A stretch of 52,330 nucleotides of DNA. Source: a virus (lineage: Duplodnaviria; Caudoviricetes). Below are positions 965 to 46,990 of this stretch, piece by piece. Positions within the stretch are counted from its first letter, which is position 1. Every line of letters begins with the position of its first letter. Position numbers and translations under genes: made by a program. Location of the stretch: the IMG/VR virus record IMGVR_UViG_3300020473_000042, positions 1 to 52,330 of that record; one strand, written 5' to 3'. A model generated the notes under the pieces. The model was not told where the DNA came from. It worked only from the letters and a program-made list of their open reading frames with translations, and ran no database searches.

Positions 965-1057
965 GGTGCGTTATATAGCATAACGTCAAATACTGGCAAC
1001 AACGTAATACTCCACATAATTGCTGTAGCTAAACATATAATCATCTAATATCCTCCA

Positions 1058-1629: not shown

Positions 1630-1656
1630 AACTTTTTCCTTTTCTAAAAAAATATG

Positions 1657-1704
1657 TTGACATCATTTTAACCATATGCTAAATCATATAAAAATCATTG
1701 TCAA
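1657..1704. promoter_or_regulatory. Pair of opposed, overlapping sigma70-type promoters
   Basis: Plus: TTGACA 1657-1662 with GCTAAATC 1678-1685. Minus: TTGACA 1704-1699, 17 bp, TAGCAT 1681-1676. Located between divergent gene blocks. Confidence 0.65.
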
Positions 1705-1722
1705 GTAAAAAAGGAAAAAGTT

Positions 1723-4058: not shown

Positions 4059-4564
4059 AATTACAACGTGGTAAGCAAGCAGAAATATGTTTCAAGAACA
4101 TTGCTGAAAACAGAGGGTATGATGTTACCTTCTCTTCCAGACAAGTTGACATGAAAGATCATATAGATTTGTTTCTAAAAAAGAATGACAAGACATTTGG
4201 TATTGATGTAAAAGCGAGAAGAAAAGTATCCAGACACAGTGATCATTATGATGATGAGCATACATGGATAGAGTTTAAGAATGTTCGTGGCAATCAAGGA
4301 TGGTTGTATGGCAAAGCTGACAAGATTGCTTTTGAAAGACAGTTTGATTTTCTTATTGTTGACAGAGAGGAGCTATCTAAATATTGCGAGACTAAAGTCT
4401 CTACTGTGTTTGTAGATAAAGCGTCAGATGCTTTGTATAAGTGCTATCAACGAGCAGGTAGGAAAGATGTAATCAGTCGAGTAAATATGGACGATATTCT
4501 TTATTCAAATATTTTTACAAAAAATCCAAAAATATGGAAAAAAGAAGTTGACATTAAAAAATAG
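4040..4564 (+). CDS. PD-(D/E)XK restriction-endonuclease-like protein
   Basis: HIDLFL...GIDVKARRK catalytic pattern; WIEFKNVRGNQGWLYGKAD. Confidence 0.7.
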   Translation: MGRYALELQRGKQAEICFKNIAENRGYDVTFSSRQVDMKDHIDLFLKKNDKTFGIDVKARRKVSRHSDHYDDEHTWIEFKNVRGNQGWLYGKADKIAFERQFDFLIVDREELSKYCETKVSTVFVDKASDALYKCYQRAGRKDVISRVNMDDILYSNIFTKNPKIWKKEVDIKK

Positions 4565-4575
4565 GGATGTATACT
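4548..4575 (+). promoter_or_regulatory. sigma70-type promoter for SSB and downstream replication genes
   Basis: A-rich upstream, TTGACA 4548-4553, 16 bp, TATACT 4570-4575; AAGGAG RBS before 4616. Confidence 0.65.
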
Positions 4576-4615
4576 AGGTTTATTGTGTAACTCTTGACAT
4601 AGAAGGAGTATTATT

Positions 4616-5047
4616 ATGATTGTAAGAGGAACAGCAGAATGGGCTTCAGTTTTTGAGCCTAACGATCTTAGCGGTAAGTATCAGGTTGACATTTGTAAAC
4701 TTGATTCAAAGACTGTTAAGGAACTGGAAGCAGTAGGCATCAACGTCAGAAAAGGCGAAGGTGAGAAGTCTGACAAAGGTTCATACATTACAGCTAAAGC
4801 TGGTAAGTATCCACCTAAAGTATGGGATCGTAAGAAGAACCCAATGGACGGATCGCAGTTGATCGGCAATGGTTCGGAGATCAAAGCGTCTATTCGTCCA
4901 TACGAGTGGAACTTCAAGGGTAAGGCTGGAGTGAGTGCAGGTCTAAACAGCCTCATGGTTCTTTCATTAGTTGCCTATGGTGGGGACGATGAGCTTGAAG
5001 CAGAGGATTTAGATGCTGATGATGGGGAGGACAACGAAGACTTCTAA
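4616..5047 (+). CDS. Single-stranded DNA-binding protein (T7 gp2.5-like)
   Basis: WASVFEPN...IGNGS...GVSAGLNSL; acidic C-terminal tail ending in F. Confidence 0.85.
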   Translation: MIVRGTAEWASVFEPNDLSGKYQVDICKLDSKTVKELEAVGINVRKGEGEKSDKGSYITAKAGKYPPKVWDRKKNPMDGSQLIGNGSEIKASIRPYEWNFKGKAGVSAGLNSLMVLSLVAYGGDDELEAEDLDADDGEDNEDF

Positions 5048-5156
5048 GTAGGTAGAGTCACGTTCAAATGGTAGGTAGGGATAGCTCTTAGGGGGTTATC
5101 GGTATCAGAGCGAGGGGTTGGGGCTACTGGTAATAACATAAGAACGAAAGAACAGC

Positions 5157-5999
5157 ATGGCAAAAGTACATACAGTAATTAACGACATCCATACAATGTT
5201 AGAAGAAGGTAAAGAGGGCGTTAACGAAAAGCACCTTCAAGAGTTCTTTCGAGCTTTGCGTGATGACATTGAAATATTTTTAGCTCCTGATAATAAAGAT
5301 AACAACGGAAGACTAAGGATGTCCTCCATAGGAAAAAGTACAAGGAAGTTATGGTACGAGTTTAGAGACAAACAACCTTCTAAGCTAGATGGTCAGACCA
5401 GACTAAAGTTTTTCTTTGGAAACCTTGTCGAGTCGTTTCTGTTGTTTCTTGTACAGGAAGCAGGGCATAAGGTTACAGACAGGCAGAAGGAAGTTGTAAT
5501 AGAAGGTGTCAAGGGACACATAGATGGTAAAATAGACGGTGTTGTAGTTGACGTAAAATCAGCTTCCGACTTTGGATTTAAAAAATTCAAATACAATAAC
5601 CTACACACTGATGATCCCTTTGGATACATAGGTCAGTTAAGTGGCTACATTCAAGCAGAGGGAGATGATGTAGGTTATTTCTTAGCTTACAATAAGAACA
5701 ATGCTGAGATGGCTCTGGTAGAGATTGATGAGCTAACGATGTTGGACGCAGAGCAACGCATCAAAGAGTTAAAGAAAGTTATGAAACAAGAGGAGGTTCC
5801 AGAAAAATGCTATTCAGATGTAGAGGAGGGCAAGCAAGGAAATAGAATACTTGACAGGAACTGTAACTTCTGCGATTATAAGTATGAGTGCTGGCAGGAT
5901 GCAAACAAAGGTAAAGGTTTAAGAGTTTTCCAATATGCCAGTGGTTTAATGTATTTCACGCACATAGAGAAGGAGCCTAGAGTAGAAGAGGTTTTGTAA
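5157..5999 (+). CDS. PD-(D/E)XK / Cas4-like exonuclease
   Basis: LRMSSIGK..RKLWY; GHIDGKIDGVVVDVKSAS; YIGQLSGY; C-terminal CNFCDYKYEC. Confidence 0.85.
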   Translation: MAKVHTVINDIHTMLEEGKEGVNEKHLQEFFRALRDDIEIFLAPDNKDNNGRLRMSSIGKSTRKLWYEFRDKQPSKLDGQTRLKFFFGNLVESFLLFLVQEAGHKVTDRQKEVVIEGVKGHIDGKIDGVVVDVKSASDFGFKKFKYNNLHTDDPFGYIGQLSGYIQAEGDDVGYFLAYNKNNAEMALVEIDELTMLDAEQRIKELKKVMKQEEVPEKCYSDVEEGKQGNRILDRNCNFCDYKYECWQDANKGKGLRVFQYASGLMYFTHIEKEPRVEEVL

Positions 6000-6241
6000 T
6001 GCAAGCTCGAAAGGAAAAAGATAAAGTATGGTATATCAAGTGGGCATCATCTGTAACGTTGATGCTTGGCATGGTACTCACAGCACAAAACGTATTTCCT
6101 TACAATCTGTATCTTCACGTTCTTGGCACAATAGGCTGGATGTATGTTTCTATTGTGTGGAATGATCGTGCGCTCATTGTAATAAACAGTGTCGCATTGT
6201 CCATATTTTTTAACGGAATAATATCAACAATGGTGAAGTAA
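5999..6241 (+). CDS. Small multi-pass membrane protein
   Basis: Three hydrophobic segments; WYIKW...WNDRALIVIN; translationally coupled to neighbours. Confidence 0.75.
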   Translation: MQARKEKDKVWYIKWASSVTLMLGMVLTAQNVFPYNLYLHVLGTIGWMYVSIVWNDRALIVINSVALSIFFNGIISTMVK

Positions 6242-7863
6242 TGGCTTATAAAAAGACACATCAACCATGTCCAGATTGCGGTAGCAGTGACGCTCTAACT
6301 ATTAACGAGGATGACAGCACCTTTTGTTTTTCTTGCGAAAGCTACAAAAATGCACCAGATGAATTAGTAGAGGAAGATATGAAACATAACGACATAAGTC
6401 CTAAATACCTGTCTTCTGGGAAGACTCTTGCTCTTCCAGACAGAGGAATAACAAGAGATACCTGTCAAGCTTACGGTGTTACAATAGAAGGAACACAACA
6501 ATACTACCCATACTACAACGAGGACGGTGAGTGGATAGCCAACAAGGTAAGGGGTAAGTCCTTTGACGGACACAAAACTTTCCAGACTATTGGAAACTGG
6601 AAAGACGCTACACTGTTTGGTCAGAATAAATTCTCTGCTGGCGGTAAGTATGTAACGTTGTGCGAGGGAGAACTTGACGCTTTAGCTGCTTATCAGATGA
6701 TGGGTTCCAAGTGGCCTTCTCTGTCTATTCGTAATGGTGCAGCGAGTGTCGTTAAAGACATAGAGAAATCTTTTGAGTACCTTATGAAATATGACAACAT
6801 AGTAATATGTTTTGATAATGATAAGGCTGGAAGGAAAGCAGCTAAGAAGGCTGCTGAGTTGTTGTCTCCTAAAGGTAAGATTGTGCATCTGGAAAAGAAG
6901 GATGCTAACGAGTATCTTATTGATGGTAAGATAAAGGAGTTTATGGACGCTTGGTGGAATGCTGACAGCTACACGCCAGACGGCATCGTTGCTGGTACTG
7001 AACTGTGGGACGTTCTACAGGAGGGGCCAGCTAAGACAGCAGTAGACTACCCTTATGACGGCATGAACTTAATGACCTATGGTATCCGTATGGGTGAGTT
7101 AATAACAGTGTGTGCTGGAACTGGCATAGGTAAGAGCAGTTTCTTAAAGGAGATCATAAAGCATATCTTTGACAACACAGAAGACAACATAGGCATGATG
7201 TTCATGGAGGAGAACGTGCGAAGCACAGCAGAGTCCATGATGGGTCTTCAGTTAGGTAAGCAGTTACATCTTCCTACCACTGAGTATACTGAGCAGGAGT
7301 ACAGAAGAGCGTATGATGAGACTGTTGGTTCTGGAAGATACTTCTTCTTTGACCATTTCGGATCAAATACTATAGATAACATACTAGCACGAATAAGGTA
7401 CTTTGTCAAGGCTGTAAAGTGCAGGTACATCATATTAGATCATATCAGTATACTTGTTAGTTCACAACAACACGCTTATGATGAGCGTAGAACAATAGAT
7501 GAGTGCATGACTAAGATAAGAACGCTGATACAGGAGCTTAACGTTTCACTGATACTGGTATCTCATTTGCGTAGACCGATGCAGGGTTCGCATGAAGAAG
7601 GGCTGAATACTTCGTTGTCCGACTTACGTGGATCTGCTAGCATAGGACAACTAAGTGACATTGTTGTTGGCTTGGAACGTAACGGTCAACACGATGATCC
7701 TGTAGAGCGACATACAACTTACGTTAGAATAATAAAAAATAGATTTTCAGGCTTGACAGGTTTGTGTGCGAAGCTATACTATGATTTTACAGATGGTCGT
7801 ATAAGAGAGAAGAGTTTAGACTTTGATGATAAAGATGACCATGATGACGGAGATCTTGATTAA
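6241..7863 (+). CDS. DNA primase-helicase (T7 gp4-like)
   Basis: Zn finger CPDC...CFSC; TOPRIM EGELD and FDNDKAG; Walker A AGTGIGKS; ILDHIS, SHLRRP, DLRGS, KNRFSG. Confidence 0.97.
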   Translation: MAYKKTHQPCPDCGSSDALTINEDDSTFCFSCESYKNAPDELVEEDMKHNDISPKYLSSGKTLALPDRGITRDTCQAYGVTIEGTQQYYPYYNEDGEWIANKVRGKSFDGHKTFQTIGNWKDATLFGQNKFSAGGKYVTLCEGELDALAAYQMMGSKWPSLSIRNGAASVVKDIEKSFEYLMKYDNIVICFDNDKAGRKAAKKAAELLSPKGKIVHLEKKDANEYLIDGKIKEFMDAWWNADSYTPDGIVAGTELWDVLQEGPAKTAVDYPYDGMNLMTYGIRMGELITVCAGTGIGKSSFLKEIIKHIFDNTEDNIGMMFMEENVRSTAESMMGLQLGKQLHLPTTEYTEQEYRRAYDETVGSGRYFFFDHFGSNTIDNILARIRYFVKAVKCRYIILDHISILVSSQQHAYDERRTIDECMTKIRTLIQELNVSLILVSHLRRPMQGSHEEGLNTSLSDLRGSASIGQLSDIVVGLERNGQHDDPVERHTTYVRIIKNRFSGLTGLCAKLYYDFTDGRIREKSLDFDDKDDHDDGDLD

Positions 7864-7865
7864 TA

Positions 7866-8087
7866 ATGAAAACAAGGATACACGTTAATCAGCACGTGCT
7901 AAAAAAAAATAGCAAAACGGGTCAGAGAAATTCTGTTTTCACCGTAAAGACATACAAAAGCAATGAATATTCTAACAAAGTTAGTATTCTCGGCCCAAGC
8001 AAAGTTGTTTATTCACCAGATAAACCTTTAAGTTGCGGTGCTAAAGCTTGGATAGAGACAAACTCTGAAGTAATTTTAGGAGAATAA
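7866..8087 (+). CDS. Small hypothetical phage protein
   Basis: RIHVNQH...YSPDKPLSCGAKAWIET; tightly packed in the operon. Confidence 0.75.
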   Translation: MKTRIHVNQHVLKKNSKTGQRNSVFTVKTYKSNEYSNKVSILGPSKVVYSPDKPLSCGAKAWIETNSEVILGE

Positions 8088-8088
8088 T

Positions 8089-8508
8089 GTGCCATTAGTG
8101 TCTATGTATAAAGTAACAAACAATGATCTAATAGACAACAAAGATTGTATCTTTATTTATCTGGATCATAAGCGCAGAATAGGTGATCCACCTGTCAACG
8201 CAGATTTCCGACACGCTGAGAATGCCTACCCTATAATTGTCAAGAAGTACAGTGGCACTAAGCCAGAGTCCTTTTTTAGCGATGCAGAATTGGGTGTGTT
8301 TCAAGGAGAGTTCGATCCAACCTTTTCCAAGATAGTGTCCATACTGAGGTCTGGCGGTACTGGAATATTATGTAGAGAGTCAATAGAACACGATGACTTT
8401 TCTCCTATCCTTATTCGTGAACACTCAAGGAAAGTACACGACTATATGCACGATGCTATGATTAAATTTTATAGCCAATACAAACCAAGACTGATCAGGA
8501 AAAGATGA
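8089..8508 (+). CDS. Hypothetical protein
   Basis: 139-aa ORF filling the operon gap; AGGAG RBS. Confidence 0.7.
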   Translation: MPLVSMYKVTNNDLIDNKDCIFIYLDHKRRIGDPPVNADFRHAENAYPIIVKKYSGTKPESFFSDAELGVFQGEFDPTFSKIVSILRSGGTGILCRESIEHDDFSPILIREHSRKVHDYMHDAMIKFYSQYKPRLIRKR

Positions 8509-8882
8509 CAACGAGATACAGATCAAGATTTGAATTTGACTTTGCTACTTACCTAGACAACAACAATATAAGGTTTGAGTATGAGCCTAGAAAAATAAAG
8601 TACGTTCCTAAAGAAAAGTCGTACACTCCAGATTTTTATCTCGTAGATTATGATATGTTTATAGAGACTAAAGGAAGATTTATAGAAGCAGACCGCACCA
8701 AACACAAACTCATAGCAAAACAGCATCCAGATATAGACATAAGGTTTATGTTCCAAAACCCTAGAGAGAAGTTGTATAAAAAGTCTAAAGCAACTTATGC
8801 TGATTGGTGTGAGAAAAACGATTTTCTTTATTGTACTAAAGAATTACCATATACGTGGGTGAAAAAAAATGAGCATAAGTAA
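8505..8882 (+). CDS. Endonuclease I / Holliday junction resolvase (T7 gp3-like)
   Basis: YRSRFE...YEP...YTPDF...IETKGRF...DRTKH...HPDIDIRFMF...TYADWC. Confidence 0.93.
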   Translation: MTTRYRSRFEFDFATYLDNNNIRFEYEPRKIKYVPKEKSYTPDFYLVDYDMFIETKGRFIEADRTKHKLIAKQHPDIDIRFMFQNPREKLYKKSKATYADWCEKNDFLYCTKELPYTWVKKNEHK

Positions 8883-9276
8883 AGACATAGCAGGTAAAGA
8901 ACTTCAAAAACTCATAGACAGAGAGAAGAAGGATCTGAAGCAAGGTCGAGTGTATCTCATACTGGAGCAGGGAGAAGACAAAAATGAGTTCTCCATGCTG
9001 TGTTTAGACACAGTAGGTAACAAAGGCGAGGAACCTACTGCTTCTCAGATTATTGCTGCTGGTGTCGTCAACATTGTAGAGAACAGTGCCGAAGCAATAT
9101 TTGAGCTAGGTGAAGAAATTATGTTGGAGAAAAAATATACAGGAAGTAACATAATTTCTCTTGACTCCTACAGAGATAAAGGGCATAATAATATTATTTT
9201 CAGACCAGAAAAAAATGATAAAATGACTGTAACGCTTACATTTGATGATAAGGATGGAGATGACGATGGCAGATGA
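8869..9276 (+). CDS. Hypothetical protein
   Basis: 135-aa ORF overlapping neighbours within the operon. Confidence 0.7.
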   Translation: MSISKDIAGKELQKLIDREKKDLKQGRVYLILEQGEDKNEFSMLCLDTVGNKGEEPTASQIIAAGVVNIVENSAEAIFELGEEIMLEKKYTGSNIISLDSYRDKGHNNIIFRPEKNDKMTVTLTFDDKDGDDDGR

Positions 9277-34168: not shown

Positions 34169-34659
34169 TATGTTGCAGCAAATACACGCACGTTAGCGGT
34201 ACTTCCAGATGAGTTGTAACATTCTATTCTATCTATGGTGTCTGCTGTCCAGTTACTTTCCCATGTATCATTCTCTGATAAATAGTTGGCTTCACTAAAT
34301 GAACCAGTAACGTCACCTCTGTTTCGGCTAAGATCGTCAGCAAGAAGAAAAGGTACGCCAGCTTGCAGTTTAACAACCCATGCGTTTTCAAGATTGCTTC
34401 CTGCTACTGTGCCTCCTTCATTACACATAAGTTGTATCTCTACAATCTGATCTGACTCTATCCAAAGAAAATCAAAGTCGTCCAGCATTGTATCGTTCCA
34501 TATCTCTTTAAGCGTAGAGTTAGTAATTGCGTAACGCTTGTCAAAATAGTGTGTTATTGTAATAGAGTCTGTTGATGTAGTACTTCCACCAGTGATGGTG
34601 TGCGAGTCATCATCTGGTATGTCTACAGTAAAATGTGTCGTTAGACTTAGCGTTGCCAT
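34168..34659 (-). CDS. Hypothetical protein, probably structural
   Basis: 163 aa, T/S/D-rich with beta character; GGAGG RBS. Confidence 0.7.
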   Translation of the reverse strand: MATLSLTTHFTVDIPDDDSHTITGGSTTSTDSITITHYFDKRYAITNSTLKEIWNDTMLDDFDFLWIESDQIVEIQLMCNEGGTVAGSNLENAWVVKLQAGVPFLLADDLSRNRGDVTGSFSEANYLSENDTWESNWTADTIDRIECYNSSGSTANVRVFAAT

Positions 34660-35309
34660 TATCCTTCCTCCATTTTAACGCTTACGTTCATACTGAAAGA
34701 ACGTCTTTCCCCTTTTGTACGAAACGGATACACTGTATGCATTAGGTATCTAGGGAATATGTAAAAATCTCCAATTTGAGGTTGTATTGTTAAAGTATGA
34801 CTATTAAAATCTTGAGGAACTCCGTATACAAATTCTATGTGTCCTCTTACTGCTCTTCTTGATTTAGCTTCTTTAGCAAACTCTTTTTCTATGTCCTTTG
34901 GCAAACTTAAATACCCTACGGATGAAAGAGAGCAGTATGTGTGTATGTGTATAGGGTTAAACTGACCTGCAAACTGTCTTACAAACCACGCAGTTCCTAA
35001 TTTAAACGGCAAACTTTTCTCAGAGTCATGTACTTTTTTTATGTAAGCATCTACTACAGCTTCAAAATAACCGTCATACTTTTGTCTTAAATAGTCTGGT
35101 ACTCTTAGTTCTTGTTCTACTTTTCCTACAAGGTACTGTGACCAATCGTGTTCTTTGACTTTCTTTTTATCTTTTGCCATGTCCTCAAGACCTTGATTGT
35201 AATCGTCTATCAATTCTTGAGGTAAAACAGATTTAGCTATAAAAGGTCCAAAAGGACGGATCATTAAAAAAGGTATTTCTGACTTTTCGTTACTAGCCTT
35301 TTCTGTCAT
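34659..35309 (-). CDS. 2OG-Fe(II) oxygenase (TIGR02466-like)
   Basis: WFVRQ..GQFNPIHIH..LSSVGYL..GDFYIFPRYLMHTVYPF..ERRSFSMN. Confidence 0.85.
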   Translation of the reverse strand: MTEKASNEKSEIPFLMIRPFGPFIAKSVLPQELIDDYNQGLEDMAKDKKKVKEHDWSQYLVGKVEQELRVPDYLRQKYDGYFEAVVDAYIKKVHDSEKSLPFKLGTAWFVRQFAGQFNPIHIHTYCSLSSVGYLSLPKDIEKEFAKEAKSRRAVRGHIEFVYGVPQDFNSHTLTIQPQIGDFYIFPRYLMHTVYPFRTKGERRSFSMNVSVKMEEG

Positions 35310-35310
35310 T

Positions 35311-35946
35311 TTATTTACCCCATTCTTTCTTGAGGTAATTTTGTACGAGTACAGATTTCACGAATGCGCCGTTGGTAATATCTTGTGATAAATGCTGATT
35401 TACCTCGTATAAATTCTTTAGCATGAAAGACTGTTCGTAAGAAACATTTGAGGAAAACCATCCAAGCACGTTTGTTCTCAAACCTTTTGTTACTTCCTGC
35501 ACCCCATGCGGATAGATAATTGGAAATATAGCAGCTTCACCAGCTTTTAACTTTCGTCCTATAGTTCCTACTTCAGTACTAAAGTATATCTCTCCTCCTT
35601 CATATTCATCGCTTAGATTTATTGAAAAGCCATAATCAAAATGTACGTTGTTAGATTTTGGATAGGCTTTAAAATTATCTACATGGAGGTTATAGTAGTT
35701 TCCTTTTTTATACTGATTGTAATAATTAACAGAAACTCTAGTTGGGCAATACACACAATCTATATAATGAGCGTCATATATTTTGTTAATTATTAGTTTA
35801 CGTACTTCTTCTGGTACGCCTACAGATTCTTTATTATTTTTTACGTCTTCTAATGGCTGTGACTTGTTGCCATCTTTAAAAGTATCTTTACCAATACCGT
35901 CTAAACAGGATTTAATTTCGTCTTCATTGAGTAATTTAATAAACAT
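35311..35946 (-). CDS. PKHD-type (PiuC/YbiX-like) Fe(II)/2OG hydroxylase
   Basis: YNLHVDN (HxD); SINLSDEYEGGE; AIFP..YPHGVQEVTKGLR..VLGWFSS; start at 35946 after AAAGGGGA. Confidence 0.85.
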   Translation of the reverse strand: MFIKLLNEDEIKSCLDGIGKDTFKDGNKSQPLEDVKNNKESVGVPEEVRKLIINKIYDAHYIDCVYCPTRVSVNYYNQYKKGNYYNLHVDNFKAYPKSNNVHFDYGFSINLSDEYEGGEIYFSTEVGTIGRKLKAGEAAIFPIIYPHGVQEVTKGLRTNVLGWFSSNVSYEQSFMLKNLYEVNQHLSQDITNGAFVKSVLVQNYLKKEWGK

Positions 35947-35990
35947 TCTATATCCCCTTTCAACAGGACAAGTGAACAAAGCAAGAAAGG

Positions 35991-36031: not shown

Positions 36032-36508
36032 TTACGTGCCAGTAGACACTGTAGCTGATTCTACAGGGTTTCTAGAAACGTCTGCCAATACTACGTGTAT
36101 GCGGAAACGCAGTGCGGATTCACCAGTTGAACCGCCATCAAGGATGAGGGCATCAATAGTGTCAGCACTTGTCAGCATACGAGCATTAGAACCAGAGGCT
36201 CCTACGGCAGCTTCTAGGAATGGTGTAAAACCAGCAGCGCAAGCAGAACCGTCAACAAAACAGTCTACGTCACCGCCAGTAAAACCAATATCCATAGTAA
36301 TCTGGCCGTTACCTCTAGCTTCTAGGACTTCTAAAACACCTGATACGATCATGGTATCTTCAGGAACGTCAATCAGTTGAATGACATCTCCTCCAGTACC
36401 ACCATCAGCGGTGTCCCATACAGGAGAAGTAACCACGTAAGGCACTGAAGCGTTAGCAGGATGACCTGCTGTTCCACCACCAGTAGCCGTTCTATTATAA
36501 GTAGCCAT
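36032..36508 (-). CDS. Capsid decoration / minor capsid protein
   Basis: Immediately downstream of the MCP; G/A/T-rich; GDVIQLIDVP...ADTIDA. Confidence 0.7.
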   Translation of the reverse strand: MATYNRTATGGGTAGHPANASVPYVVTSPVWDTADGGTGGDVIQLIDVPEDTMIVSGVLEVLEARGNGQITMDIGFTGGDVDCFVDGSACAAGFTPFLEAAVGASGSNARMLTSADTIDALILDGGSTGESALRFRIHVVLADVSRNPVESATVSTGT

Positions 36509-36522
36509 GATTTATTTCCCCC

Positions 36523-37494
36523 TTACGAGCCAAGATCAACAACACCAGAAAACACACCCTTGTAGCCTGTGCCACTGCCTCGTAGAACTTTACGTCCGAA
36601 AACGTGAAGACCACGAACAATGTCAGCAAAACTATCAGGGTCACGAATAACTTCCGTTTTAGCAATATGGGAAGCTGTAGCAACAGCACTCATATGACCG
36701 TATAGGAAGATATGCTCACCAGCATTAGTTGATGAAAATGTATGACTTGCAGCAGCACCATCGCCACCGTTAACGATAGCGTTTGTTTGATACAGCTTGA
36801 AGCCATGTATGATTCGATCCGTTACCAAACCATTCATTAGTGCAGATCCTGCTTCTCCAGTAACACTGGAATCCATTAGTTTAGCGTCAGCTTGACGTAA
36901 AACTTCATAGAACTCAGGGTCGGCAACTAGCCAACGGTTTTCGTAAGGGACATCGTTTTCGTCCATAACTTTAGCAGCAGCACTCACAGCATTTGCAAGT
37001 TCGTTACCAGTACAAGCAGAACCTGTACCAGTACCAGTAATCGGAGATGCGTCCGTACCAGTGTCACCTGCGCTTGTTGCAGCATTGCTGTAGATGTTGT
37101 TAAGAACGTTGTAGTCAAATGCTTTCTTCAAAGTGTAAGCACCAGAAGAAGTTGCCAGTGACTCAAAGTTAAGGTGGGAATGACGCTCTTCAATGTCGTC
37201 TACCTTAAAAGCAAAGTAATTGCCTTGATCCACAACAAGCTGAATTTGGTCATCAGCCAAATCTTGCGTGTTTACTGTGGAACCCCTAGTATAAGAAGAA
37301 ACCGAAATGGTTGGTTCCTTAATTATATTAACGGTGTCACCGAAGTTTTCAATCTCTCCAGAATAATCGGTGTTGGTAATAGCTTCCGCTACCGAAGACC
37401 TGCGAAAGTACTTGAGAACCTTTTGACTGTAGATAACAGGTACAAAATTACCAGAAGGTAAGTTTGCATATCCTGCAGCGGTTGCGTAAGCCAT
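36523..37494 (-). CDS. Major capsid protein (HK97 fold, P22/HMO-2011-like)
   Basis: GNFVPVIYSQKV...ITNTDYSGEI..GDTVNII..P; FAFKVDDIE; RDPDSFADIVRGLHVFGRKVLR; AAAGGAG RBS. Confidence 0.93.
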   Translation of the reverse strand: MAYATAAGYANLPSGNFVPVIYSQKVLKYFRRSSVAEAITNTDYSGEIENFGDTVNIIKEPTISVSSYTRGSTVNTQDLADDQIQLVVDQGNYFAFKVDDIEERHSHLNFESLATSSGAYTLKKAFDYNVLNNIYSNAATSAGDTGTDASPITGTGTGSACTGNELANAVSAAAKVMDENDVPYENRWLVADPEFYEVLRQADAKLMDSSVTGEAGSALMNGLVTDRIIHGFKLYQTNAIVNGGDGAAASHTFSSTNAGEHIFLYGHMSAVATASHIAKTEVIRDPDSFADIVRGLHVFGRKVLRGSGTGYKGVFSGVVDLGS

Positions 37495-37531
37495 AGCTTA
37501 TGCTCCTTTCTACAAAAGGTTTAAGTAGTAA

Positions 37532-38440
37532 TTATAGAGAGTCTACTATTCGCCCCTCTTTTGCTGCCTTGTCAATATCCTTTTCTAAAGCAGCGTACTC
37601 GTGAGGTTTTAACTTGGAAATCTCCTCAACAGTCCACATTCTAGTGTCGTCCTGAAGCTCTTCAATGTAACGTCTTTGTTTAGTTTTCGTTACGGCTTCA
37701 GCAGCACTTTGGCGTGGTGCTTTAGATCTTTCTTTTGTAGCAGACCTCTTTCTTGACCTCGTTTTAGAGGACGTTCCTTTATCCGCTTTGTACAAATCAA
37801 TAACTCTTGCTGCCCATTTAGCATCAGTATTATTTTTGTAGATACCATCAGATAAGGTAGCTGGCTGTTCATCGAGCCATGAAAGAAATTCGTCACTTTC
37901 TTTTAGATCAACAAAGTCAGGGTGCATACTTATAAGTTCTTGTTCAGCAGTTTGAACAACAGCTTCCTGCTCCTTTACTTTTAGCTCTTCAAGTCTTGAC
38001 TCAATGTCTTTAACTCGATCACTTGCCTTCAAAGCTGAGATAGTTTCGACTACATCGTAAACGTCTGGATACTTTTCACGGAACTCTGTCAACTCTTCCT
38101 CTGTCTTAGGCAGCTCTGGTATTTGCGAAGATTTTTCTGCCATCGAGAGCTTTGCTTCCAGAAGCTCTTGTTGCTGTTTCCATTCGTTTAACTTTGTGTC
38201 ATAATGCTTCTTCAAGTCTCCATAACGTTTTTTGTAGTCATGGGTAGTGTCTGCATTACCGTCTTTTCTATCAACCAGACCTTGCTTTTTAGGTTTAGGA
38301 GTTGCCATATCTATGGGGTCTTCAACCTCGTCATCGTCTGGTTCGTTTAAGCTTTGCCTATACTGATTCTCGTATGGGGTAGGCTCCTGTTCTTCTTCGT
38401 ACTCGTCTTCTAAATTTACATCTTCATTACGTACAGTCAT
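37532..38440 (-). CDS. Capsid scaffolding protein
   Basis: Acidic and coiled-coil; YKKRYGDLKKH, HPDF, IDKAAKEGRI; directly upstream of the MCP. Confidence 0.85.
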   Translation of the reverse strand: MTVRNEDVNLEDEYEEEQEPTPYENQYRQSLNEPDDDEVEDPIDMATPKPKKQGLVDRKDGNADTTHDYKKRYGDLKKHYDTKLNEWKQQQELLEAKLSMAEKSSQIPELPKTEEELTEFREKYPDVYDVVETISALKASDRVKDIESRLEELKVKEQEAVVQTAEQELISMHPDFVDLKESDEFLSWLDEQPATLSDGIYKNNTDAKWAARVIDLYKADKGTSSKTRSRKRSATKERSKAPRQSAAEAVTKTKQRRYIEELQDDTRMWTVEEISKLKPHEYAALEKDIDKAAKEGRIVDSL

Positions 38441-38456
38441 CTTTACCTCTCTTTCT

Positions 38457-38582
38457 TGGGGCCATATTTTTCCAGAATATGTTATCGAAGAACATTGTCC
38501 AACACATTACTGGCAACATATGGGTAGCCATCGGTAGGTTAGCAATGGGGCCAAACAACACCATGTTACTTGGGTAGCCATT
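38457..38582 (-). promoter_or_regulatory. Tandem RNA hairpins with an identical GG-CUAC-CC / GG-CC-CC internal loop in the scaffold 5' leader
   Basis: TGGGTAGCCA at 38521 and 38571, TGGGGCCA at 38457 and 38546; distal stems differ in sequence but each pairs. Confidence 0.75.
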
Positions 38583-38585
38583 GGT

Positions 38586-39068
38586 TTAGAGGAACATCTT
38601 AGAAAATTCTAAGTTACGATGTTCCAATTCTCTTAATTCGCCACTACCTGTACGATAGTAACGCTTATATTCTTGTTGCATTACGTCCTTTTCATCGTCT
38701 AGCGTTGCATTCACAAACTTAGGAAATTTACGCAAACCGTTAGGACCAATATTAAATACAAAATCTGTAAATATTTCTTTGCAGTTCTGGGAAAGACTGT
38801 CAAAGTCGTCACTGCCAAATTCTGATATAACTCTGCTTGCTCCTTCTGCAGCTTTTGATATGTCGCCTATAAGAAGTCTTTCCACTTCATCGTTGTCCAA
38901 GCCAGACTGCATCCACTCTTGATCGTTCTGTAGCTTGTGGCCGTAGCCTATTGTATCGTTGCCTCCTTCTGGAGAAGGGTGCGGATACCAAACGCCGTCT
39001 TTAAAGCCTATCTTGCTTCCGTTCTCTACACGTTTCATGTAGTCTATAAATTCACCACGTATGTCCAT
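38586..39068 (-). CDS. Lysozyme (GH24 / T4-type endolysin-like)
   Basis: RVENG...DTIGYGHKL...DFVFNIG..GLRKFPKF...RN. Confidence 0.85.
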   Translation of the reverse strand: MDIRGEFIDYMKRVENGSKIGFKDGVWYPHPSPEGGNDTIGYGHKLQNDQEWMQSGLDNDEVERLLIGDISKAAEGASRVISEFGSDDFDSLSQNCKEIFTDFVFNIGPNGLRKFPKFVNATLDDEKDVMQQEYKRYYRTGSGELRELEHRNLEFSKMFL

Positions 39069-42000
39069 TTAAGCTGCTTTATCTACCACTCGTTTTACAA
39101 AACCACCTTTATTTTTGTTTTCGCCACCTGTGGTAAAAAATAAATGATTTTTTGACCTATATACTGGTTCTTTATCTTTTGCAAATTTAGGCGTTTGTTT
39201 AACCCCTTTTGGATTGTAAAAGAATGTAGCTCCTTTTGTAAGGTCTGGTTCTGTAGGATCATTATTAAATATTTTTTCTGCTATAGATTTATATTTTAGA
39301 TACATTTCATTATCATCCATAGTGTTTACCATTACATTGAAGTTATTTAACCTTTTTTCAAAATCATCACTATGTTCTTTTGTACCAAAATCAGGTATTG
39401 TTGAAAACGCTCTTGGTTGCAAAATAACTTCCTTTAAACTATTTGGAAAACCTTTTTCACTAACTCTGTTTTTCATTACATGAAGTACAGCTCTCATACC
39501 ATCTTCACTAGGTAATTCACTTTCTTCTGATCTAGCTTCACCCATAGCCATTAAAACAGCCATGTCTATGTCTGGTATGTTAGAATAGGCGTTAAAATTT
39601 TCTAAAGCTTCTTTAAAATAAGGTCTTTCTTGAAGCGGTTGTTTTCTTCCAGGTATGGGAGGTGTTTGTGCCTGTTTTGCTCCATCAACAGGGCCAGCAT
39701 CTGCATACCCTTGCGGTGCTGAAAAACCTTGTTGTACTATCTTTCCAGTTGGGTCAACCATAGGAGGTTGCTGTGCTTGTTTTCTTGTGCGCTCCAATGC
39801 TTGCATTTGATTGTAAGAAGACTCTTGTGCCTGTGTTGTATCTGATTCCAACATAGCTTCTACTGTAGGTTGTTTTTGTTCGTTAGGGTTCATAACAAAG
39901 CCACCTTTTTGCATCATAGGTGCTTGAGGTGCTTGAGGTGCTTGAGCCATTTGTTGAGGTTGTTCTTCAGGCATAGGTTGCTGTTCTTGCATAGAAGGTT
40001 GTTTTTCTTCTTCTAGTCTTTTGCGTAATGCAAGACCTTCATCCCTTATCTTGTCTAGATACTTCTTACCGCCTCCAAAAAACGGCACTAGCACTTTAGG
40101 AATATGGTACTCGTAGTTGCTCACTTTTATTGGAACGTCATCTGTTGGATCTATGTCTGTTCCAGTTAATTCAATATTATTTTCCATAGCAAGTTTTATA
40201 GCTTCTCTGGCGTATCTGTTTAGTTGGTTTAAGCCTGTAAGAAGAACAGTCTCGTAAGGAAGAATGTAATCACCCTCATCTGCTTCTCTTGGTATGTCGT
40301 CCTGTACAGATTTTTGACCGCCTTGCTGTGGTTCTGCTGCTGGCGCATTTATTATACCCAGATTAGCCATGTCTGCTGGTGCGCCTTGCTGTGGCATAGG
40401 TGCTTGAGGTACTTCGCCTCCCTCTTGAAATGATATATCTGAAAAACCAGACCAATCTTCTGAAGGTGCGCCATCACTTGCAGCAGATGCATTATCTCCA
40501 GCAGATGCATCGTCATCGGACTGCCATTGTCCACCAGCTTCTTCACTTCCTTCTACTAATCCATAGTCAAAAGCTTTTGACATATCTTGAGTGCCTTCAG
40601 TGTAATCTCCGTAATAATCAAAAGCTTCTGCCATGTCTTGTTCAGGATCGTCTTGCCAACCTGCCCATCCTGCCATTGACCCCTGAGATGTTGCGAAAGG
40701 GTTGTATCGCTCAACTCCTTTTAAAGTAACCTTGTCGTCTAGTTGACCATCTGTAAAATCATAGTCATAAGTCCACGTTGGTAGTATTCCTATGCTTTGT
40801 TCATACCCTTTTTGGCTCATCATGCTTCTGGAACTATACTGTCCTCCAAGATCTGGATGTATAGAAATGCCCCCCTGAAGCATATCGTAATATTCACCAA
40901 CTCCTAAAAGATTTACTCCTTGATAATCAAAATCTTTTTCACTAAGAACATAATCCCGATCAAACAAGTTAGGATTTGGCTGCCATCCAAAATGTAGACT
41001 TTCACCATTGTCGCTGTTAGACGCACCGCCATATGCTTCTACAGCTTGATCAAATAACGGTTTTAAATTAGGATCGAACTGCCTGAAACTTGCTCTTCCA
41101 AACCCACCTCTTGCATCTATAGCTTGTTGTAAATTATTAAATCCTTCTTTTGTTGTCAGTGCTTGTTTAAAAGTGTCTTCATCACCAAACAACATTTCCC
41201 TGCCAAACTCATCTCTGTAGTTTCCGTTTGGTAAATATCCAGCAGGACCAATAGGCGTAGGATCATCAAAACCCAAACCATCTAAAATAGGAGACAAATA
41301 CTTTTTAAAAAAAGAATCTTCTCTTGCAGCTTCTCCAAATTCCCTATCTTCAAGATCTAAAGGATGGTAAGGTTTTCCAGTAAAAGGGTTAGCTTCCAGA
41401 CCGTCAAATGTTATTGCTTCTGTTCCTTCTCTCCAAAGTTCTAAAACTTTATCTGCAATTTCTTTTCCTTCTTTAGTTGAAATATCTCCAAACTCGCCTC
41501 TGTTGTACCATTCTTCCATTTGATCTGCAGAAGCTCCTGAAACATTGTAATACAAATCTTTTTTACCTGATTGTACATCTTTTATATTGCCGAACATATT
41601 TGAAGCTAGGCTTCCTACACTTGCTGGAGATCCTGATACAATTCCTGCTATGGCTCCAAGAATACCTCCAAAACCTATTTCTCCAGGAAAAGATATGGCT
41701 CCTGCTGAACCAGATAGATCATCTGCGTCTGCGCTAGTTTCAAGTTGTTCTGTAGTTATAGGTCTTCGTTGTTGAACAGCAAGAGAAGTTTCAGTAGCAG
41801 GAGCATCTACTGAGGCGGTAGCAGCAGCTTGTGTTTGCCCTTGTGCTGCAGCAGTTCTTCCTGCAAATCCGCTAAAAGGAGCTTGAGCAAAAGTTTTAGC
41901 ACCGCTTGGCAACAATCCAGATGTTATCCCTGCTCTGTAAAATGAAGGGGCTGTAACACCAGCAGGTATGTCTGGGAGCAACTCAGAAGATGTTAGACCT

Positions 42001-44626: not shown

Positions 44627-46990
44627 TTATCTTGTTGTTGGAAATTCTTCAGAAGATTCACCTGTTCTTTCAAAGTAATCTTCGTATTCTTTTATAAAAC
44701 CTGTTCTTTTAGGTTGAAATTTGTCTTCTGTAAGCCCCATAGACACAGCTTCTCTTTCAGCAGTGTCTTGTCTTTTTAAAAAACCTTTCATTTCATCTGC
44801 ATATCGACTTGAAGCTTCTTTTTCTAAAAGCATTAATTCATCTTCTCTTGTTCTTGGTCTGGTAGTGTATTCTTCTTCTGTTGGAAATTCTTCTGCAGTT
44901 GGATCTGCTTTCGCCATGTTTGGGAAATATACTCCTCTGGGTACAGCATATTCAGTGTCTTCTTCAAATTTATCTGGTATTCCTCTTTCTGCTTCCATTC
45001 TTTGTTGCATAGCGTCAAACAGTTCAGGATCTTCTAAATCTTCAATAGGTCTTTCTCCTGCAGGTCCAGCTTCAGCAGCTTGAAAAGCTAACTCAATACC
45101 TGCTTCTCCTAACATTGCTTGAGGGGCAACTGCTGCTAGGGCCAAACCGCCTATTATTCTTTTACCAGCTTTAGATTTTAAAGCTTCTAGAGCCTCTTCA
45201 GATCCATCTTTTGCCAGATCTATTAATTTTCGTAATTTTTTATCAGCATCTTTATTTTTTGCATCTGCTTCGTTTAATATAGCTTGTTTTAGTTCGTCTT
45301 TATCTCCAGTTGCTCTTGCTTCATTTATTTGTCGTGTATTGTCAGCAGGAGGAGTATCTGATTCTATGTCCTCTCCTACAATAGACTGTCCTTTTCTCAG
45401 CCTATCTTTAATTCCTCCTCTGCCTCCCCCTGTCCTTGCACTGGATATAGCACCTCTTCTGACTAACTCATCAAACATGCCTTGAAATTTAGTAGCTAAA
45501 TCAGTTAACTGTCCCTTAAAATTAGCCATTCCCTCTTGAACAGTAGATGCTAAGTTGACAGCCATCCTACTAAAAGCATCGTAGTTAGGCATCTCTGTAA
45601 CGTCAGGTATCTTTCCTTCTGGGTGCGTAAGTCTGTTAGGATGATTTTCGTATCCAGGTTTTATTCCATCTTGTGAAAAAGTGTCTTCCTCAAAACCCAT
45701 ATTTGGAATAAGGCTTAGTGCATCTTGAGTTACTCTGCTTAATGAAGCTAATATTCTTCCAGAAGATAATCCTCTGCTGTCTATTGCTTCTGATACTTCT
45801 CCTACATAGTCTTCTTCGTTAATTCCAAATGCGCTTAAAAAAGCTCTTGGACTGATAAAGTCCGAATACCCTACTAATCTACTTTCTAAAGTTCTTAATG
45901 CTTGTTTTCCAAACTCTATTCTTTCACCAGAATTGATATACTTAGTTGCTTCATCTGTTCTTGCTCTTCCAGTTACCATCTTTCTTTCAATTAAAGTAAA
46001 ATCTCCTACCATAGACTCCATGTTGTTTCTTAAATATTTCATTAAAAAACCAGTTTCTTTAGGTTTAGTTCCTGCTAAATCTTTTTCAACTGTAATTCTG
46101 TGTTCATTTCCTAAATTTCTAGCTATGTCGTCTGCTATGTTATCAGTTATATTTGAACCATACGTACCATGACCTTTTGGAAAAAGTTTTCCATCTTTTT
46201 TTCTTTTAGTGTTAGGAGACTTTTCTCTTTCTTTAATAATCTGATTTAGAATTTCTCTTGAAACGTCACCAAAAATAACTGTAGTTTTGTACCCACCTTT
46301 TGTTTCAGGAATAGATAAAGTACCATTATTTAAGTCTATATCCTCTAAAGCTATTCTTCCCATTTCTTCAAGACGAAGACCTGTTGTATACTTTAATAAA
46401 CCAAACAATTTAGACATTCTGTCTACTTTAGTGTTTTCACTTAAAGATTTTATAAAAGCTTTTTGAAAGTTAGGAGGTAGATTTACAATATCTCTAGATC
46501 TTTTTTCTTGAAGATGAAAATAACTTTCTTTCAACTTACCTAAAGTATTTTGAAGTTTTTGTATTCCGTCTAAACCTGCATAATTACTTATTGACTTAAT
46601 ATAAGAAGCCATATCAGCTTTAGAGTAATTACTAAGACCTTGCTTTTCTAATAGTCCATCAGGCTTAAACAGTGCTTTTATAACACCTGCACTGTTTAGC
46701 TCTTTTAATGTTAAGTCTGAAGCTTGTACCAGCTTACCATCCCCAAGATCTATAGTAGTTTCTCTCAGTTTTGTAAGAACGCCCTTTAAAGCACTTGCTG
46801 CACCTCTTGAATAAGCACCACTTCGATTAGCAGTAGGATAAATCTCATTTCCATCTGCATCAAAAAGATCCTTGACCCCTCTTTCTTTCATACTCTGAAG
46901 AATAGCTTGCTCAAAGTTGCTATCAGGAGATATAGCTGCTTCTTGTGAAATATCTATTTCTGTAAGTAATTCTGTTACTTCGTCTGCCAT
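44627..46990 (-). CDS. 787-aa protein with a tyrosine-recombinase (integrase-family) catalytic domain and a long acidic C-terminal region
   Basis: TTGLR206LEEM..I..EDIDL..GTLSIPETKGG..LFP..K318YLR321..TGR342..TKY351; TAATG-coupled to TerL. Confidence 0.75.
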   Translation of the reverse strand: MADEVTELLTEIDISQEAAISPDSNFEQAILQSMKERGVKDLFDADGNEIYPTANRSGAYSRGAASALKGVLTKLRETTIDLGDGKLVQASDLTLKELNSAGVIKALFKPDGLLEKQGLSNYSKADMASYIKSISNYAGLDGIQKLQNTLGKLKESYFHLQEKRSRDIVNLPPNFQKAFIKSLSENTKVDRMSKLFGLLKYTTGLRLEEMGRIALEDIDLNNGTLSIPETKGGYKTTVIFGDVSREILNQIIKEREKSPNTKRKKDGKLFPKGHGTYGSNITDNIADDIARNLGNEHRITVEKDLAGTKPKETGFLMKYLRNNMESMVGDFTLIERKMVTGRARTDEATKYINSGERIEFGKQALRTLESRLVGYSDFISPRAFLSAFGINEEDYVGEVSEAIDSRGLSSGRILASLSRVTQDALSLIPNMGFEEDTFSQDGIKPGYENHPNRLTHPEGKIPDVTEMPNYDAFSRMAVNLASTVQEGMANFKGQLTDLATKFQGMFDELVRRGAISSARTGGGRGGIKDRLRKGQSIVGEDIESDTPPADNTRQINEARATGDKDELKQAILNEADAKNKDADKKLRKLIDLAKDGSEEALEALKSKAGKRIIGGLALAAVAPQAMLGEAGIELAFQAAEAGPAGERPIEDLEDPELFDAMQQRMEAERGIPDKFEEDTEYAVPRGVYFPNMAKADPTAEEFPTEEEYTTRPRTREDELMLLEKEASSRYADEMKGFLKRQDTAEREAVSMGLTEDKFQPKRTGFIKEYEDYFERTGESSEEFPTTR

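Follow-up and report, generated by a model that had tools for sequence, protein, structure and literature searches.

The mRNA of the putative scaffolding protein gene of this phage carries an RNA element assembled from repeated helix modules, each with an asymmetric 4x2 internal loop. One module abuts the Shine-Dalgarno sequence of the gene, both stems of the module covary among related phages, and whole-genome scans revealed no significant copy anywhere other than on scaffold mRNA. We propose, and would give the proposal about even credence, that the element is a translational operator with several protein-binding sites, possibly an autogenous one; the binding of a protein, its identity and the direction of its effect are what we infer.

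Results

Two modules in the leader of the putative scaffold gene

The window analyzed here is the whole 52,330-nt stretch of DNA. On its minus strand, the putative scaffolding protein gene (37532..38440; 302 aa; phrog_13678, of unknown function in PHROGs) is followed by the gene for a Gp10A-like/P22-coat-like major capsid protein (36523..37494) and preceded by a gene for a lysozyme-like protein of 160 aa (38586..39068), whose stop codon lies 2 nt before the first module. The stretch that separates the lysozyme-like gene from the scaffold and capsid genes is the largest gap of the structural operon, and it holds the element. The assignment as a scaffold is putative, and comes from the position and size of the gene and from a structural model of the protein with long helices, a helical pair at the C-terminus and two disordered stretches, an acidic one at the N-terminus and a basic linker. 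A search of PDB sequences with the protein gave no match, and a Foldseek comparison of its fold with the PDB returned only generic coiled-coil rows at E > 3. In the Atlas, a cluster named 'Scaffolding protein family' (score 0.92; 124 features shared; the family on 13% of members) is a weak lead. A Pfam search over 58 ORFs of the window detected no recognizable RNA-binding domain.

The scaffold gene starts at 38440 (minus strand) and has a leader of 145 nt, which contains two copies of the module. The distal copy, hairpin A (38543..38583, minus), reads CAAUGG-CUAC-CCAAGUAACA-ugg-UGUUGUUUGG-CC-CCAUUG, with the pairing and the loop that the original prediction had described. The proximal copy, hairpin B (38457..38530, minus), reads UGG-CUAC-CCAUAU-(50-nt insert)-AUAUGG-CC-CCA, and its outer stem is only 3 bp long in the window. 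Its predicted structure and loop held up, but the Shine-Dalgarno sequence GAGAGG (38446..38451, minus, read from the sequence) begins 5 nt past the 3′ end of the hairpin rather than the ~7 nt first given. As had also been claimed, the 4x2 internal loop is identical in the two hairpins while their stems differ and still pair. A covariance model matched hairpin A at 38582-38544 with 31.9 bits (E = 4.4e-7; this copy belonged to the seed alignment) and hairpin B, which was outside the seed, with 23.0 bits (E = 2.4e-4). The exact 11-mer ATGGCTACCCA occurs twice in the 52,330 bases, both times in these hairpins, and two of the three occurrences of TGGCCCCA in the window are located there as well. 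A strict structural descriptor, applied to both strands of the window, had exactly two matches, namely hairpins A and B; in Markov simulations, it had a mean of 1.39 matches per window.

Thermodynamics alone give the leader region no distinction: a 171-nt leader fold has an energy of -38.5 kcal/mol and a z-score of -0.73, so that its stability is not unusual. Since both hairpins have the same outer-stem sequence, the 3′ half of the first module could alternatively pair with the 5′ half of the second (38521..38553, minus; UGG-CC-CCAUUG-cuaaccuac-CGAUGG-CUAC-CCA), which would form an inverted module. This pairing is not kept in relatives whose outer stems differ. In the minimum-energy fold, CCUCU (38592-38588) pairs long-range with the Shine-Dalgarno sequence, an arrangement that is probably not general, given that the upstream gene differs between clades. 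The region from -15 to +3, comprising the Shine-Dalgarno sequence and the start codon, is predicted to be mostly unpaired (P = 0.73 in the window; a mean of 0.62 for 70 leaders), so that the hairpins do not by themselves mask the ribosome-binding site.

Consensus, covariation and occurrence in relatives

The module consensus consists of an outer stem ending in G, the long loop strand NNAC, a hairpin closed by C and G, the short loop strand CN, and the returning outer stem beginning with C. Its long strand, G-NNAC-C, usually contains CUAC and its short strand, G-CN-C, usually CC. Both closing pairs, the AC of the long strand and the C of the short strand are invariant across the aligned instances. 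The hairpin loops and inserts, on the other hand, are free in sequence and in length (3 to >50 nt), and the helices total about 10–20 bp, with outer stems of 3–8 bp. When 68 distinct instances were aligned to the model, 90.6% of paired cells could pair, compared with 62.6% in shuffled controls, and seven of the nine modeled pairs had changes on both sides. The covariation score was 0.733, against 0.204 after shuffling and at most 0.167 with the partners slid. Both stems of the module thus covary, and the covariation in relatives is strong, which bears out the original prediction on this point.

As an unbiased set, we used 80 loci that had been fetched by capsid similarity alone, with a model threshold of E <= 0.1. 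There were 107 matches in 73 of these loci; all were on the coding strand, all were in the scaffold leader, and they sit 861–1071 nt upstream of the capsid start. The seven loci with no match have at most 950 nt of upstream sequence, and the leader is missing from them. The model also detects the module in the cultured phages HTVC033P, HTVC103P (two copies) and CRP-2, all at E <= 0.023, as well as in the leader of HMO-2011, at E = 0.084. Matches to the model were weak in CRP-1 (E = 0.76), Rhizobium phage RHph_N3_13 (E = 1.5) and Aeromonas phage 1233 (E = 4.4), and Vibrio phage CHOED had no match near its leader; in these four phages, we identified the leader module by eye. The phage of the window is an HMO-2011-type marine podophage, of an abundant marine group with SAR11, SAR116 and Roseobacter hosts.

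Among 18 contigs of a genome collection with a gene for a scaffold relative, ten also matched the model at E < 0.01, and the loop letters are unchanged in phages whose scaffold proteins are down to 29–74% identical. A search of viral contigs with the exact pattern gave 100 matches, 70 of which lie 11–58 nt (mostly 11–18 nt) before an ORF matching the scaffold protein of the window at E < 1e-3. A further four precede truncated N-terminal ORF pieces of 94–95 aa, seven are distal copies, and about 19 look like chance. In the relatives, proximal copies end 10–21 nt before the start codon and 0–8 nt before the Shine-Dalgarno sequence.

A further module within the coding sequence

A third, inverted copy is located in the scaffold coding sequence at 38299..38320 (minus; +121 to +142), where GA-CC-CCAU-agau-AUGG-CAAC-UC encodes DPIDMATP. 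An outer extension helix, AGGUU/AACCU, which is also drawn in the minimum-energy fold, widens this module to 38328-38291. An inverted descriptor of the same stringency had 13 matches in the window, compared with 19.1 expected, and module 3 by itself is not above chance. What upholds the prediction of a third copy is its retention: across clades, a coding-sequence module reappears between +95 and +220 nt, with differing encoded peptides and with stem changes that compensate one another.

Of 118 distinct scaffold 5′ regions, 32 have an inverted module nested inside a leader hairpin, as classified by an explicit mid-stem test, and none of these 32 has the coding-sequence module. The latter is present in 70 of the 86 non-nested regions. 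As controls, the descriptor was matched in 11 of 118 regions at coding-sequence nt 331–660 and in two of 118 on the antisense strand. The mutual exclusion of the two forms across the 118 regions has a Fisher p of 3e-17, a value that overstates independence because the complementary distribution may reflect one or a few clades. The 16 non-nested regions without a descriptor-detected coding-sequence module include those of HTVC103P, CRP-2, CHOED and Aeromonas phage 1233. Two loci, L009 and L010, have a variant with a 5-nt loop that the descriptor misses. At least two loci, L198 and L201, have their coding-sequence copy in the canonical instead of the inverted form, and orientation is therefore not a rule. 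In all, a scaffold mRNA has two to four copies, with one to three in the leader plus one in the coding sequence.

Specificity and comparison with described RNA motifs

With filters off, a scan of the window with the model returned nothing below E = 1.6 beyond the leader modules. Nine other phage genomes were searched in full, and every match below E = 0.1 was in the scaffold leader. A permissive scan of 37500-39500 against Rfam 15 (E <= 10) gave just two irrelevant weak matches, a scan of the loci of 12 relatives (E <= 5) gave nothing in the leaders, and the NNAC/CN loop has no counterpart in 4227 Rfam families. The leader module is a new RNA family, a previously undescribed element of a known general kind.

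Several more specific identities were considered and rejected. A kink-turn has a 3-nt bulge followed by tandem sheared G.A/A.G pairs; the loop strands NNAC and CN lack the required G or A opposite. In riboswitches of the guanidine-II type, conserved terminal loops pair with each other, whereas here the terminal loops vary freely and the internal loop alone is conserved, which rules out such a tandem mini-hairpin riboswitch. There is no terminator-like site on the minus strand of 36300-39300, and the sequences next to the hairpins on their 3′ side are GCUAACC and AGAAAG, which disposes of an intrinsic terminator. Ribosomal RNA mimicry was checked with the rrnB operon of E. coli, in which the model had no match below E = 1.8; this is a weak test because rRNA internal loops join distant strands. 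A small ORF of 45 aa that overlaps the leader (38427-38564) was rejected because the hairpin inserts of relatives vary by non-multiples of three. A sigma-70-like site lies in the insert of hairpin B (38501-38474), and the regional count of such sites equals the shuffle expectation. The marine motifs Ocean-V and Ocean-VI are AU-rich, ~160 nt and ~75 nt in length, and have other conserved letters (alignment in the supplement of Weinberg 2010), and were ruled out as well; Ocean-VI is absent from Rfam. The portions of Weinberg 2017, Weinberg 2010 and Meyer 2009 that were covered contain no matching motif under scaffold, capsid or phage terms, and none of the best-ranked literature matches combined HMO-2011 with an RNA-structure term.

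Discussion

We read the element as an operator because its loop is constant, its stems differ and yet pair, its position is fixed, it is confined to one mRNA, and it is present in several copies. Of the multi-site protein-binding motif that was first predicted, what stands is a repeated, sequence-specific RNA structure that covaries in relatives, is fixed beside the Shine-Dalgarno sequence and occurs on scaffold mRNA only; its binding of a protein we retain as a proposal. The modules would then make up a cis-regulatory RNA whose 4x2 loops serve as binding sites for a phage-encoded protein acting as a dimer or oligomer. With the sites on either side of the ribosome-binding site occupied, translation of the scaffold would be shut off or tuned, and the scaffold-to-capsid ratio might be set in this way. 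The binder that we favor is unassembled scaffold itself, in which case the feedback would be autogenous.

Autogenous operators are known for phage and ribosomal proteins, such as those of T4 gene 32, gene 43, MS2 coat and replicase, and the r-protein leaders. Like them, the scaffold element is a small structured RNA site abutting the ribosome-binding site of one mRNA, with constant recognition letters in a variable helix, and the gene product is consumed by assembly. Unlike them, it is repeated two to four times, with one copy 100–220 nt into the coding sequence. In the thrS operator, two similar RNA domains around the ribosome-binding site are bound by the threonyl-tRNA synthetase homodimer. 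The scaffold mRNA likewise has two like modules flanking the ribosome-binding site, and the nested form of the leader has a pseudo-twofold layout that would suit a dimer. It differs in having no tRNA mimicry and variable hairpin loops, such that recognition would be at the internal loop. To our knowledge, P22 is the only phage with known scaffold autoregulation. There, too, the scaffold gene is upstream of a P22-like coat gene, and we propose the same logic. Casjens and Adams in 1985, and Wyckoff and Casjens in the same year, reportedly described how the scaffolding protein gene of P22 is autoregulated post-transcriptionally. In contrast to the present phage, gene 8 of P22 lies just 13 nt downstream of the portal gene and has no such leader, bases 1-9000 of P22 gave no match to our model, and no RNA operator for the P22 scaffold is described in the portions of the literature that were examined.

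A structural parallel is the C-loop, which is described as a protein-binding, asymmetric internal loop within the stem of a hairpin; two bases of its long strand form base triples with the flanking pairs, the first base of that strand is often C, and the loop of the example described is typically 3x1 (PMC9516175, PMC2952876). The thrS operator is cited as one of the bacterial mRNAs that contain a C-loop and take part in translational regulation (PMC9516175). The scaffold module resembles a C-loop in that a hairpin stem is interrupted by an asymmetric internal loop, with conserved cytosines and, as we propose, a bound protein. Its long strand also begins with C in CUAC, CAAC and CCAC, though A and U occur there too. 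The scaffold module differs in being 4x2 and in the AC that invariably ends its long strand on the 3′ side.

A different view of the element, which we think unlikely, is that it governs the processing or stability of the RNA, either as recognition or cleavage sites for an endoribonuclease or by protecting 5′ structures, so that the level or lifetime of the scaffold-capsid message is uncoupled from that of weakly expressed upstream genes. Its location in the largest gap of the operon, before the scaffold and capsid genes, would suit this function, and T7-type RNase III sites, too, are hairpins that lie between phage genes and contain an asymmetric internal loop. An RNase III site has about two helix turns and is cleaved in or beside the internal loop. 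The scaffold helices appear much shorter, with outer stems down to 3 bp and helices of about 10–14 bp, which would be short for RNase III. Moreover, a purely protective hairpin needs no invariant loop letters, and a copy 100–220 nt into the coding sequence suits a stabilizer poorly. One RNA-library contig (X1 record 1, 36500-38625) runs unbroken through the two hairpins and the genes for scaffold and capsid; uncleaved RNA, or DNA carried over in the library, therefore exists, which speaks neither for nor against partial processing. Metatranscriptome contigs end at 38625 (X1), 38619 (X4), 38570 (X5) and about 38727 (X9), and 38722-39125 has little or no cover. The ends of X1 and X4, contigs from two separate studies, are 6 nt apart, and neither has a loose end. 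As contigs cannot show true ends, we take this as no more than a weak hint that an RNA boundary lies about 40 nt upstream of hairpin A.

It is also conceivable, at what we judge to be a low probability, that the modules recruit portal or scaffold protein to the scaffold mRNA, thereby coupling the initiation of procapsids to scaffold synthesis. The presence of several sites on one mRNA only, flanking the region where nascent scaffold emerges, is consistent with such nucleation, though translational control is the simpler explanation of a position that abuts the Shine-Dalgarno sequence. In an equally speculative extension, the scaffold mRNA would be a platform for head assembly that gathers portal and/or scaffold, with the same contacts feeding back on translation. 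An older idea, put forward for P22 (1990), is that of an obligate portal-mRNA interaction, and the platform, if real, would give that idea a physical form.

Comparably improbable, in our estimation, is an element that works with no dedicated phage protein, be it a ligand or ion switch, a ribosome standby site or insulator, or an antitermination signal that acts on RNA polymerase. Some tandem mini-riboswitches share the tandem layout directly upstream of the Shine-Dalgarno sequence, and the ribosome-binding site is predicted to be open, as it would be next to an insulator. Against these possibilities, the hairpin loops and inserts vary from 3 to >50 nt, the only conserved part, a 4x2 internal loop, would make a very small ligand pocket, invariant letters are not needed in an insulator, and an antitermination signal would be expected once, at the start of the operon, and not within a coding sequence too. 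We give almost no credence to a chance resemblance or to a site that acts as double-stranded DNA, for example as a repeat bound by a protein: the folding energy of the leader is ordinary and a minority of the exact-pattern matches look accidental, but 68 distinct instances have covarying stems and invariant loops, all 107 model matches are on one strand and in one place, and a DNA site has no need of compensatory changes.

Returning to the operator, its module is short, has freely swappable stems and may bind a protein, and could therefore serve as part of an orthogonal RNA-protein pair. For the phages themselves, how unassembled scaffold is sensed and how the scaffold-to-coat ratio is set are questions of long standing, and the element provides a concrete RNA target for them that can be mutated. 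The element is small and sharply defined, lies outside Rfam, is restricted to scaffold mRNA and was kept as the protein fell to about 30% identity. Its retention in the face of this divergence points to a dedicated and previously undescribed control step in head assembly.

Genomic context of the putative scaffold gene

On capsid and scaffold similarity, the window (a 52,330-base viral record with an estimated completeness of 94%) can be grouped with the HMO-2011-type marine podophages. Its closest named relatives are Pelagibacter phages HTVC033P, 103P, 104P, and 115P, Puniceispirillum phage HMO-2011, and the Roseobacter CRP phages, whilst remoter relatives have Vibrio, Aeromonas, and Rhizobium as hosts. 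The structural genes lie on the minus strand in the order small terminase, large terminase, a 787-aa integrase-domain protein, portal, a 1033-aa cell-wall hydrolase, and a 160-aa lysozyme-like protein. A gap of 145 nt (38441–38585) then precedes the gene for a 302-aa acidic protein (37532–38440, minus strand) and the major capsid protein gene (36523–37494, minus strand). Three grounds make the 302-aa protein the presumed scaffold: its size, its location 5′ of a P22/Gp10A-like coat gene, and its predicted model, which runs from an acidic, disordered N-terminus through two long helices and a basic, disordered linker to a helical pair at the C-terminus. Its PHROGs entry is of unknown function, and neither sequence nor fold searches found a relative in the PDB.

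The integrase-domain ORF (44627–46990, minus strand; Pfam E = 1.5e-9; PHROG integrase) is unusual in both its size and its place between large terminase and portal. Two neighbouring 2OG-Fe(II) oxygenase genes (34659–35979, minus strand) also lie in the structural module, 3′ of the capsid gene. Pfam identified neither an RNA-binding domain nor a phage RNA polymerase among the 58 ORFs of the window; the sole hint of a small nucleic-acid-binding fold is a 97-aa ORF (1336–1629, minus strand) with a match to WYL_2, an Sm-like SH3 barrel, that falls under the Pfam cut-off (E = 6e-4).

Two hairpins in the scaffold leader

The original prediction described two hairpins with an identical asymmetric internal loop in the RNA 5′ of the scaffold start, and direct reading of the minus strand reproduced both exactly. 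Hairpin A, the distal copy (38543–38583), and hairpin B, the proximal copy (38457–38530), have in common UGG-CUAC-CCA … UGG-CC-CCA, and their distal stems are different. The 11-mer common to them is absent from the rest of the window, and a strict structural descriptor applied to both strands found these two sites alone, compared with 1.39 expected per window. Folding energy at the leader is not unusual (z = −0.73), and the region is not flagged by energy alone.

In the minimum-energy fold, the Shine-Dalgarno AGAGG (38446–38450, minus strand) pairs with CCUCU in the final codons of the preceding gene (38588–38592), and both hairpins then sit within a three-way junction; since clades differ in which gene lies upstream, this pairing is probably not general. 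The 50-nt insert of hairpin B contains a sigma-70-like site (TGGACA, 16 nt, TATTCT; 38474–38501, minus strand), and the regional count of such sites equals the shuffle expectation.

Seventeen public runs recorded as RNA hold part of the window, and one RNA-library contig spans both hairpins and the scaffold and capsid genes. For 36500–39500, this evidence consists of assembled contigs. Contigs over the scaffold and capsid genes end at 38625, 38619, 38570, and ~38727 in four RNA runs (X1, X4, X5, and X9, respectively), the ends near 38619–38625, from two studies, being at most a weak hint of an RNA boundary. Depth in the X1 contigs is 56.5 across scaffold and capsid, compared with ~4 at 39148–39415.

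The module is conserved in related scaffold leaders

Capsid similarity alone (62–97% identity) was used to choose 80 loci, so the motif played no part in the sampling. The module recurs in their scaffold leaders, where its stems differ and its loop letters vary in some cases. The consensus is an outer stem of 3–8 bp ending in G, the long strand NNAC, a hairpin of any length closed by C and G, the short strand CN, and the returning outer stem beginning with C. Long strands among relatives are CUAC, CAAC, CCAC, AUAC, UUAC, and ACAC; short strands are CC, CA, and CU, with AC in Vibrio phage CHOED.

A covariance model was seeded with 53 instances selected by a pairing descriptor. It recovered hairpin B (E = 2.4e-4) although this was outside the seed and, with filters off, gave no other match in the window below E = 1.6. 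Over the 80 loci (469 kb, both strands), there were 107 matches at E ≤ 0.1, in 73 loci, every one on the coding strand and 861–1071 nt upstream of the capsid start. The seven loci without a match have at most 950 nt upstream, and lack a complete scaffold ORF or have less than 50 nt of leader. The alignment of 68 distinct instances has 90.6% of its cells paired, compared with 62.6% after shuffling; both sides change in seven of the nine modelled pairs, and the covariation score is 0.733, versus 0.204 shuffled and at most 0.167 slid. Because the model shaped the alignment and pairing guided the choice of seed, it is the position of the matches that constitutes the independent evidence.

Viral contigs scanned for the exact pattern yielded at least 100 stretches. 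Among the 100 matches listed, 70 place the motif 11–58 nt (mostly 11–18 nt) before an ORF similar to the window's scaffold at E < 1e-3; seven are distal copies resembling hairpin A, ~19 are chance-like, and four precede truncated N-terminal ORF pieces (94–95 aa) that are not scorable as scaffold, three of which have full-length scaffold siblings among the matches listed. The model also matches cultured phages, with E at most 0.023 for HTVC033P, CRP-2, and HTVC103P (which has two copies) and 0.084 for HMO-2011. Weak matches were obtained for CRP-1 (E = 0.76), Rhizobium phage RHph_N3_13 (E = 1.5), and Aeromonas phage 1233 (E = 4.4), and none near the scaffold leader of CHOED; in these four, the leader module was identified by eye. 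Ten of 18 genome-collection contigs encoding scaffold relatives match at E < 0.01, all upstream and on the coding strand. When nine other phage genomes were scanned whole, matches below E = 0.1 lay in the scaffold leader only, in a scan whose first filter misses some known copies.

The most canonical leader modules seen in a row is three, before the scaffold start of one genome-collection contig (L206:1176–1301). In the HTVC033P-like clade (the L026–L079 group of loci), a distal module, GUG-CCAC-CUAGUCA … UGACUAG-CC-CAC, lies ~55–65 nt before the scaffold start; its hairpin encloses the last codons and stop of the upstream gene, with inserts of 8 to ~70 nt.

Inverted copies in the leader and in the coding sequence

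Many relatives, including HMO-2011, CRP-1, and the Rhizobium phage, have a single leader hairpin with two loops, in the order outer stem, CUAC, middle stem (5–6 bp), CC, apical hairpin, CUAC, middle stem, CC, outer stem. The inner loop of this nested leader is the same module turned over, and the middle stem covaries (CCAUC/GGUGG versus CCAUG/CGUGG).

A third, inverted copy had been proposed within the scaffold coding sequence (38291–38328, with the module itself at 38299–38320, minus strand). Taken alone it is not above chance in the window, where an inverted descriptor of fitting stringency gave 13 matches against 19 expected; the proposal is supported by recurrence of the inverted module in the scaffold coding sequence of several clades, between +95 and +220 nt, with differing peptides and compensating stems. 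The form in the window's clade, GA-CC-CCAU-agau-AUGG-C(U/A)AC-UC, encodes DPIDMATP, GGA-CC-CCGCU-(8 nt)-AGCGG-CUAC-UCC encodes DPAVEEAATP, and GA-CC-CC-guaga-GG-CUAC-UC encodes DPVEAT, this last type having CU/AG instead at one locus via two synonymous changes. Further forms are GA-CC-CUGCA-gaua-UGCAG-ACUAC-UC; GGA-CA-CU … AG-CCAC-UCC, in a clade with CCAC and CA in its leader copies too; GGA-CA-CC-(about 40 nt)-GG-CUAC-UCC, in the HTVC033P clade; GUUGG-CA-CC-guaga-GG-CUAC-CCAAC; and AAACGGA-CC-CUUC-(7 nt)-GAAG-CUAC-UUCGUUU. The inverted module occupies the variable acidic N-terminal part of scaffold, directly before the conserved core.

Nested leaders occur in 32 of 118 distinct, phylogenetically non-independent scaffold 5′ regions; the coding-sequence module is in none of these 32 and in 70 of the 86 others. 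Control rates for its descriptor were 11/118 in coding nt 331–660 and 2/118 on the antisense strand. Two loci are exceptions with a canonical copy in the coding sequence (L201:1443–1472 and L198:1446–1472; CAGG-CUAC-CC..GG-CC-CCUG, peptide QATPDEEAPE), and among the 5′ regions examined, the module was not found in several named phages.

Comparison with known RNAs

No Rfam family matches, and no description of the element was found in Rfam or the literature searched; the family is new, although its general kind is already known. Ocean-V and Ocean-VI were rejected as different RNAs, and kink-turn, terminator, and tandem-loop riboswitch were each rejected on the features of their class. The element may be likened in function to autogenous operators, and in layout to the two-domain thrS operator.

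C-loops (PMC9516175, PMC2952876) are asymmetric, cytosine-rich internal loops in hairpins that bind protein. The module resembles them in its asymmetry, its cytosines, and its hairpin setting, and as a putative protein-binding site; its size is 4x2 rather than the 3x1 of the described example. P22 scaffold is reported to be autoregulated post-transcriptionally (two 1985 papers). P22 has no comparable leader before its scaffold gene and no covariance-model match in bases 1–9000.

A candidate translational operator

The loop letters are invariant within freely changing helices, each message carries two to four copies on both sides of a ribosome-binding site that is predicted to be open by itself, the copy nearest the start codon abuts the Shine-Dalgarno sequence, and the element is confined to scaffold mRNA. 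Taken together, these features are the hallmark of a site recognised by a trans-acting factor. The simplest candidate would be a protein whose binding, as a dimer or oligomer, blocks initiation. We give about an even chance to the module array being a translational operator.

A role in processing or stability of the message is possible and rather improbable. Nucleation of assembly on the scaffold message is doubtful; for P22, a paper mentions that an obligate portal-mRNA interaction has been proposed and states that the evidence for it is slight. Equally doubtful is a protein-independent switch, an insulator, or an RNA acting on polymerase. Chance or a site at the DNA level is very improbable indeed.

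The loop copies noted in the original prediction are thereby confirmed and traced well beyond the window, and its putative operator is consistent with all of the comparative evidence. The hosts belong to both the Alpha- and Gammaproteobacteria, which favours a phage-encoded or universal host binder over a lineage-specific host factor. As the cis-element is dedicated to one gene, feedback by the product of that gene or an assembly partner is suggested, and the scaffold protein would be the favoured putative binder.
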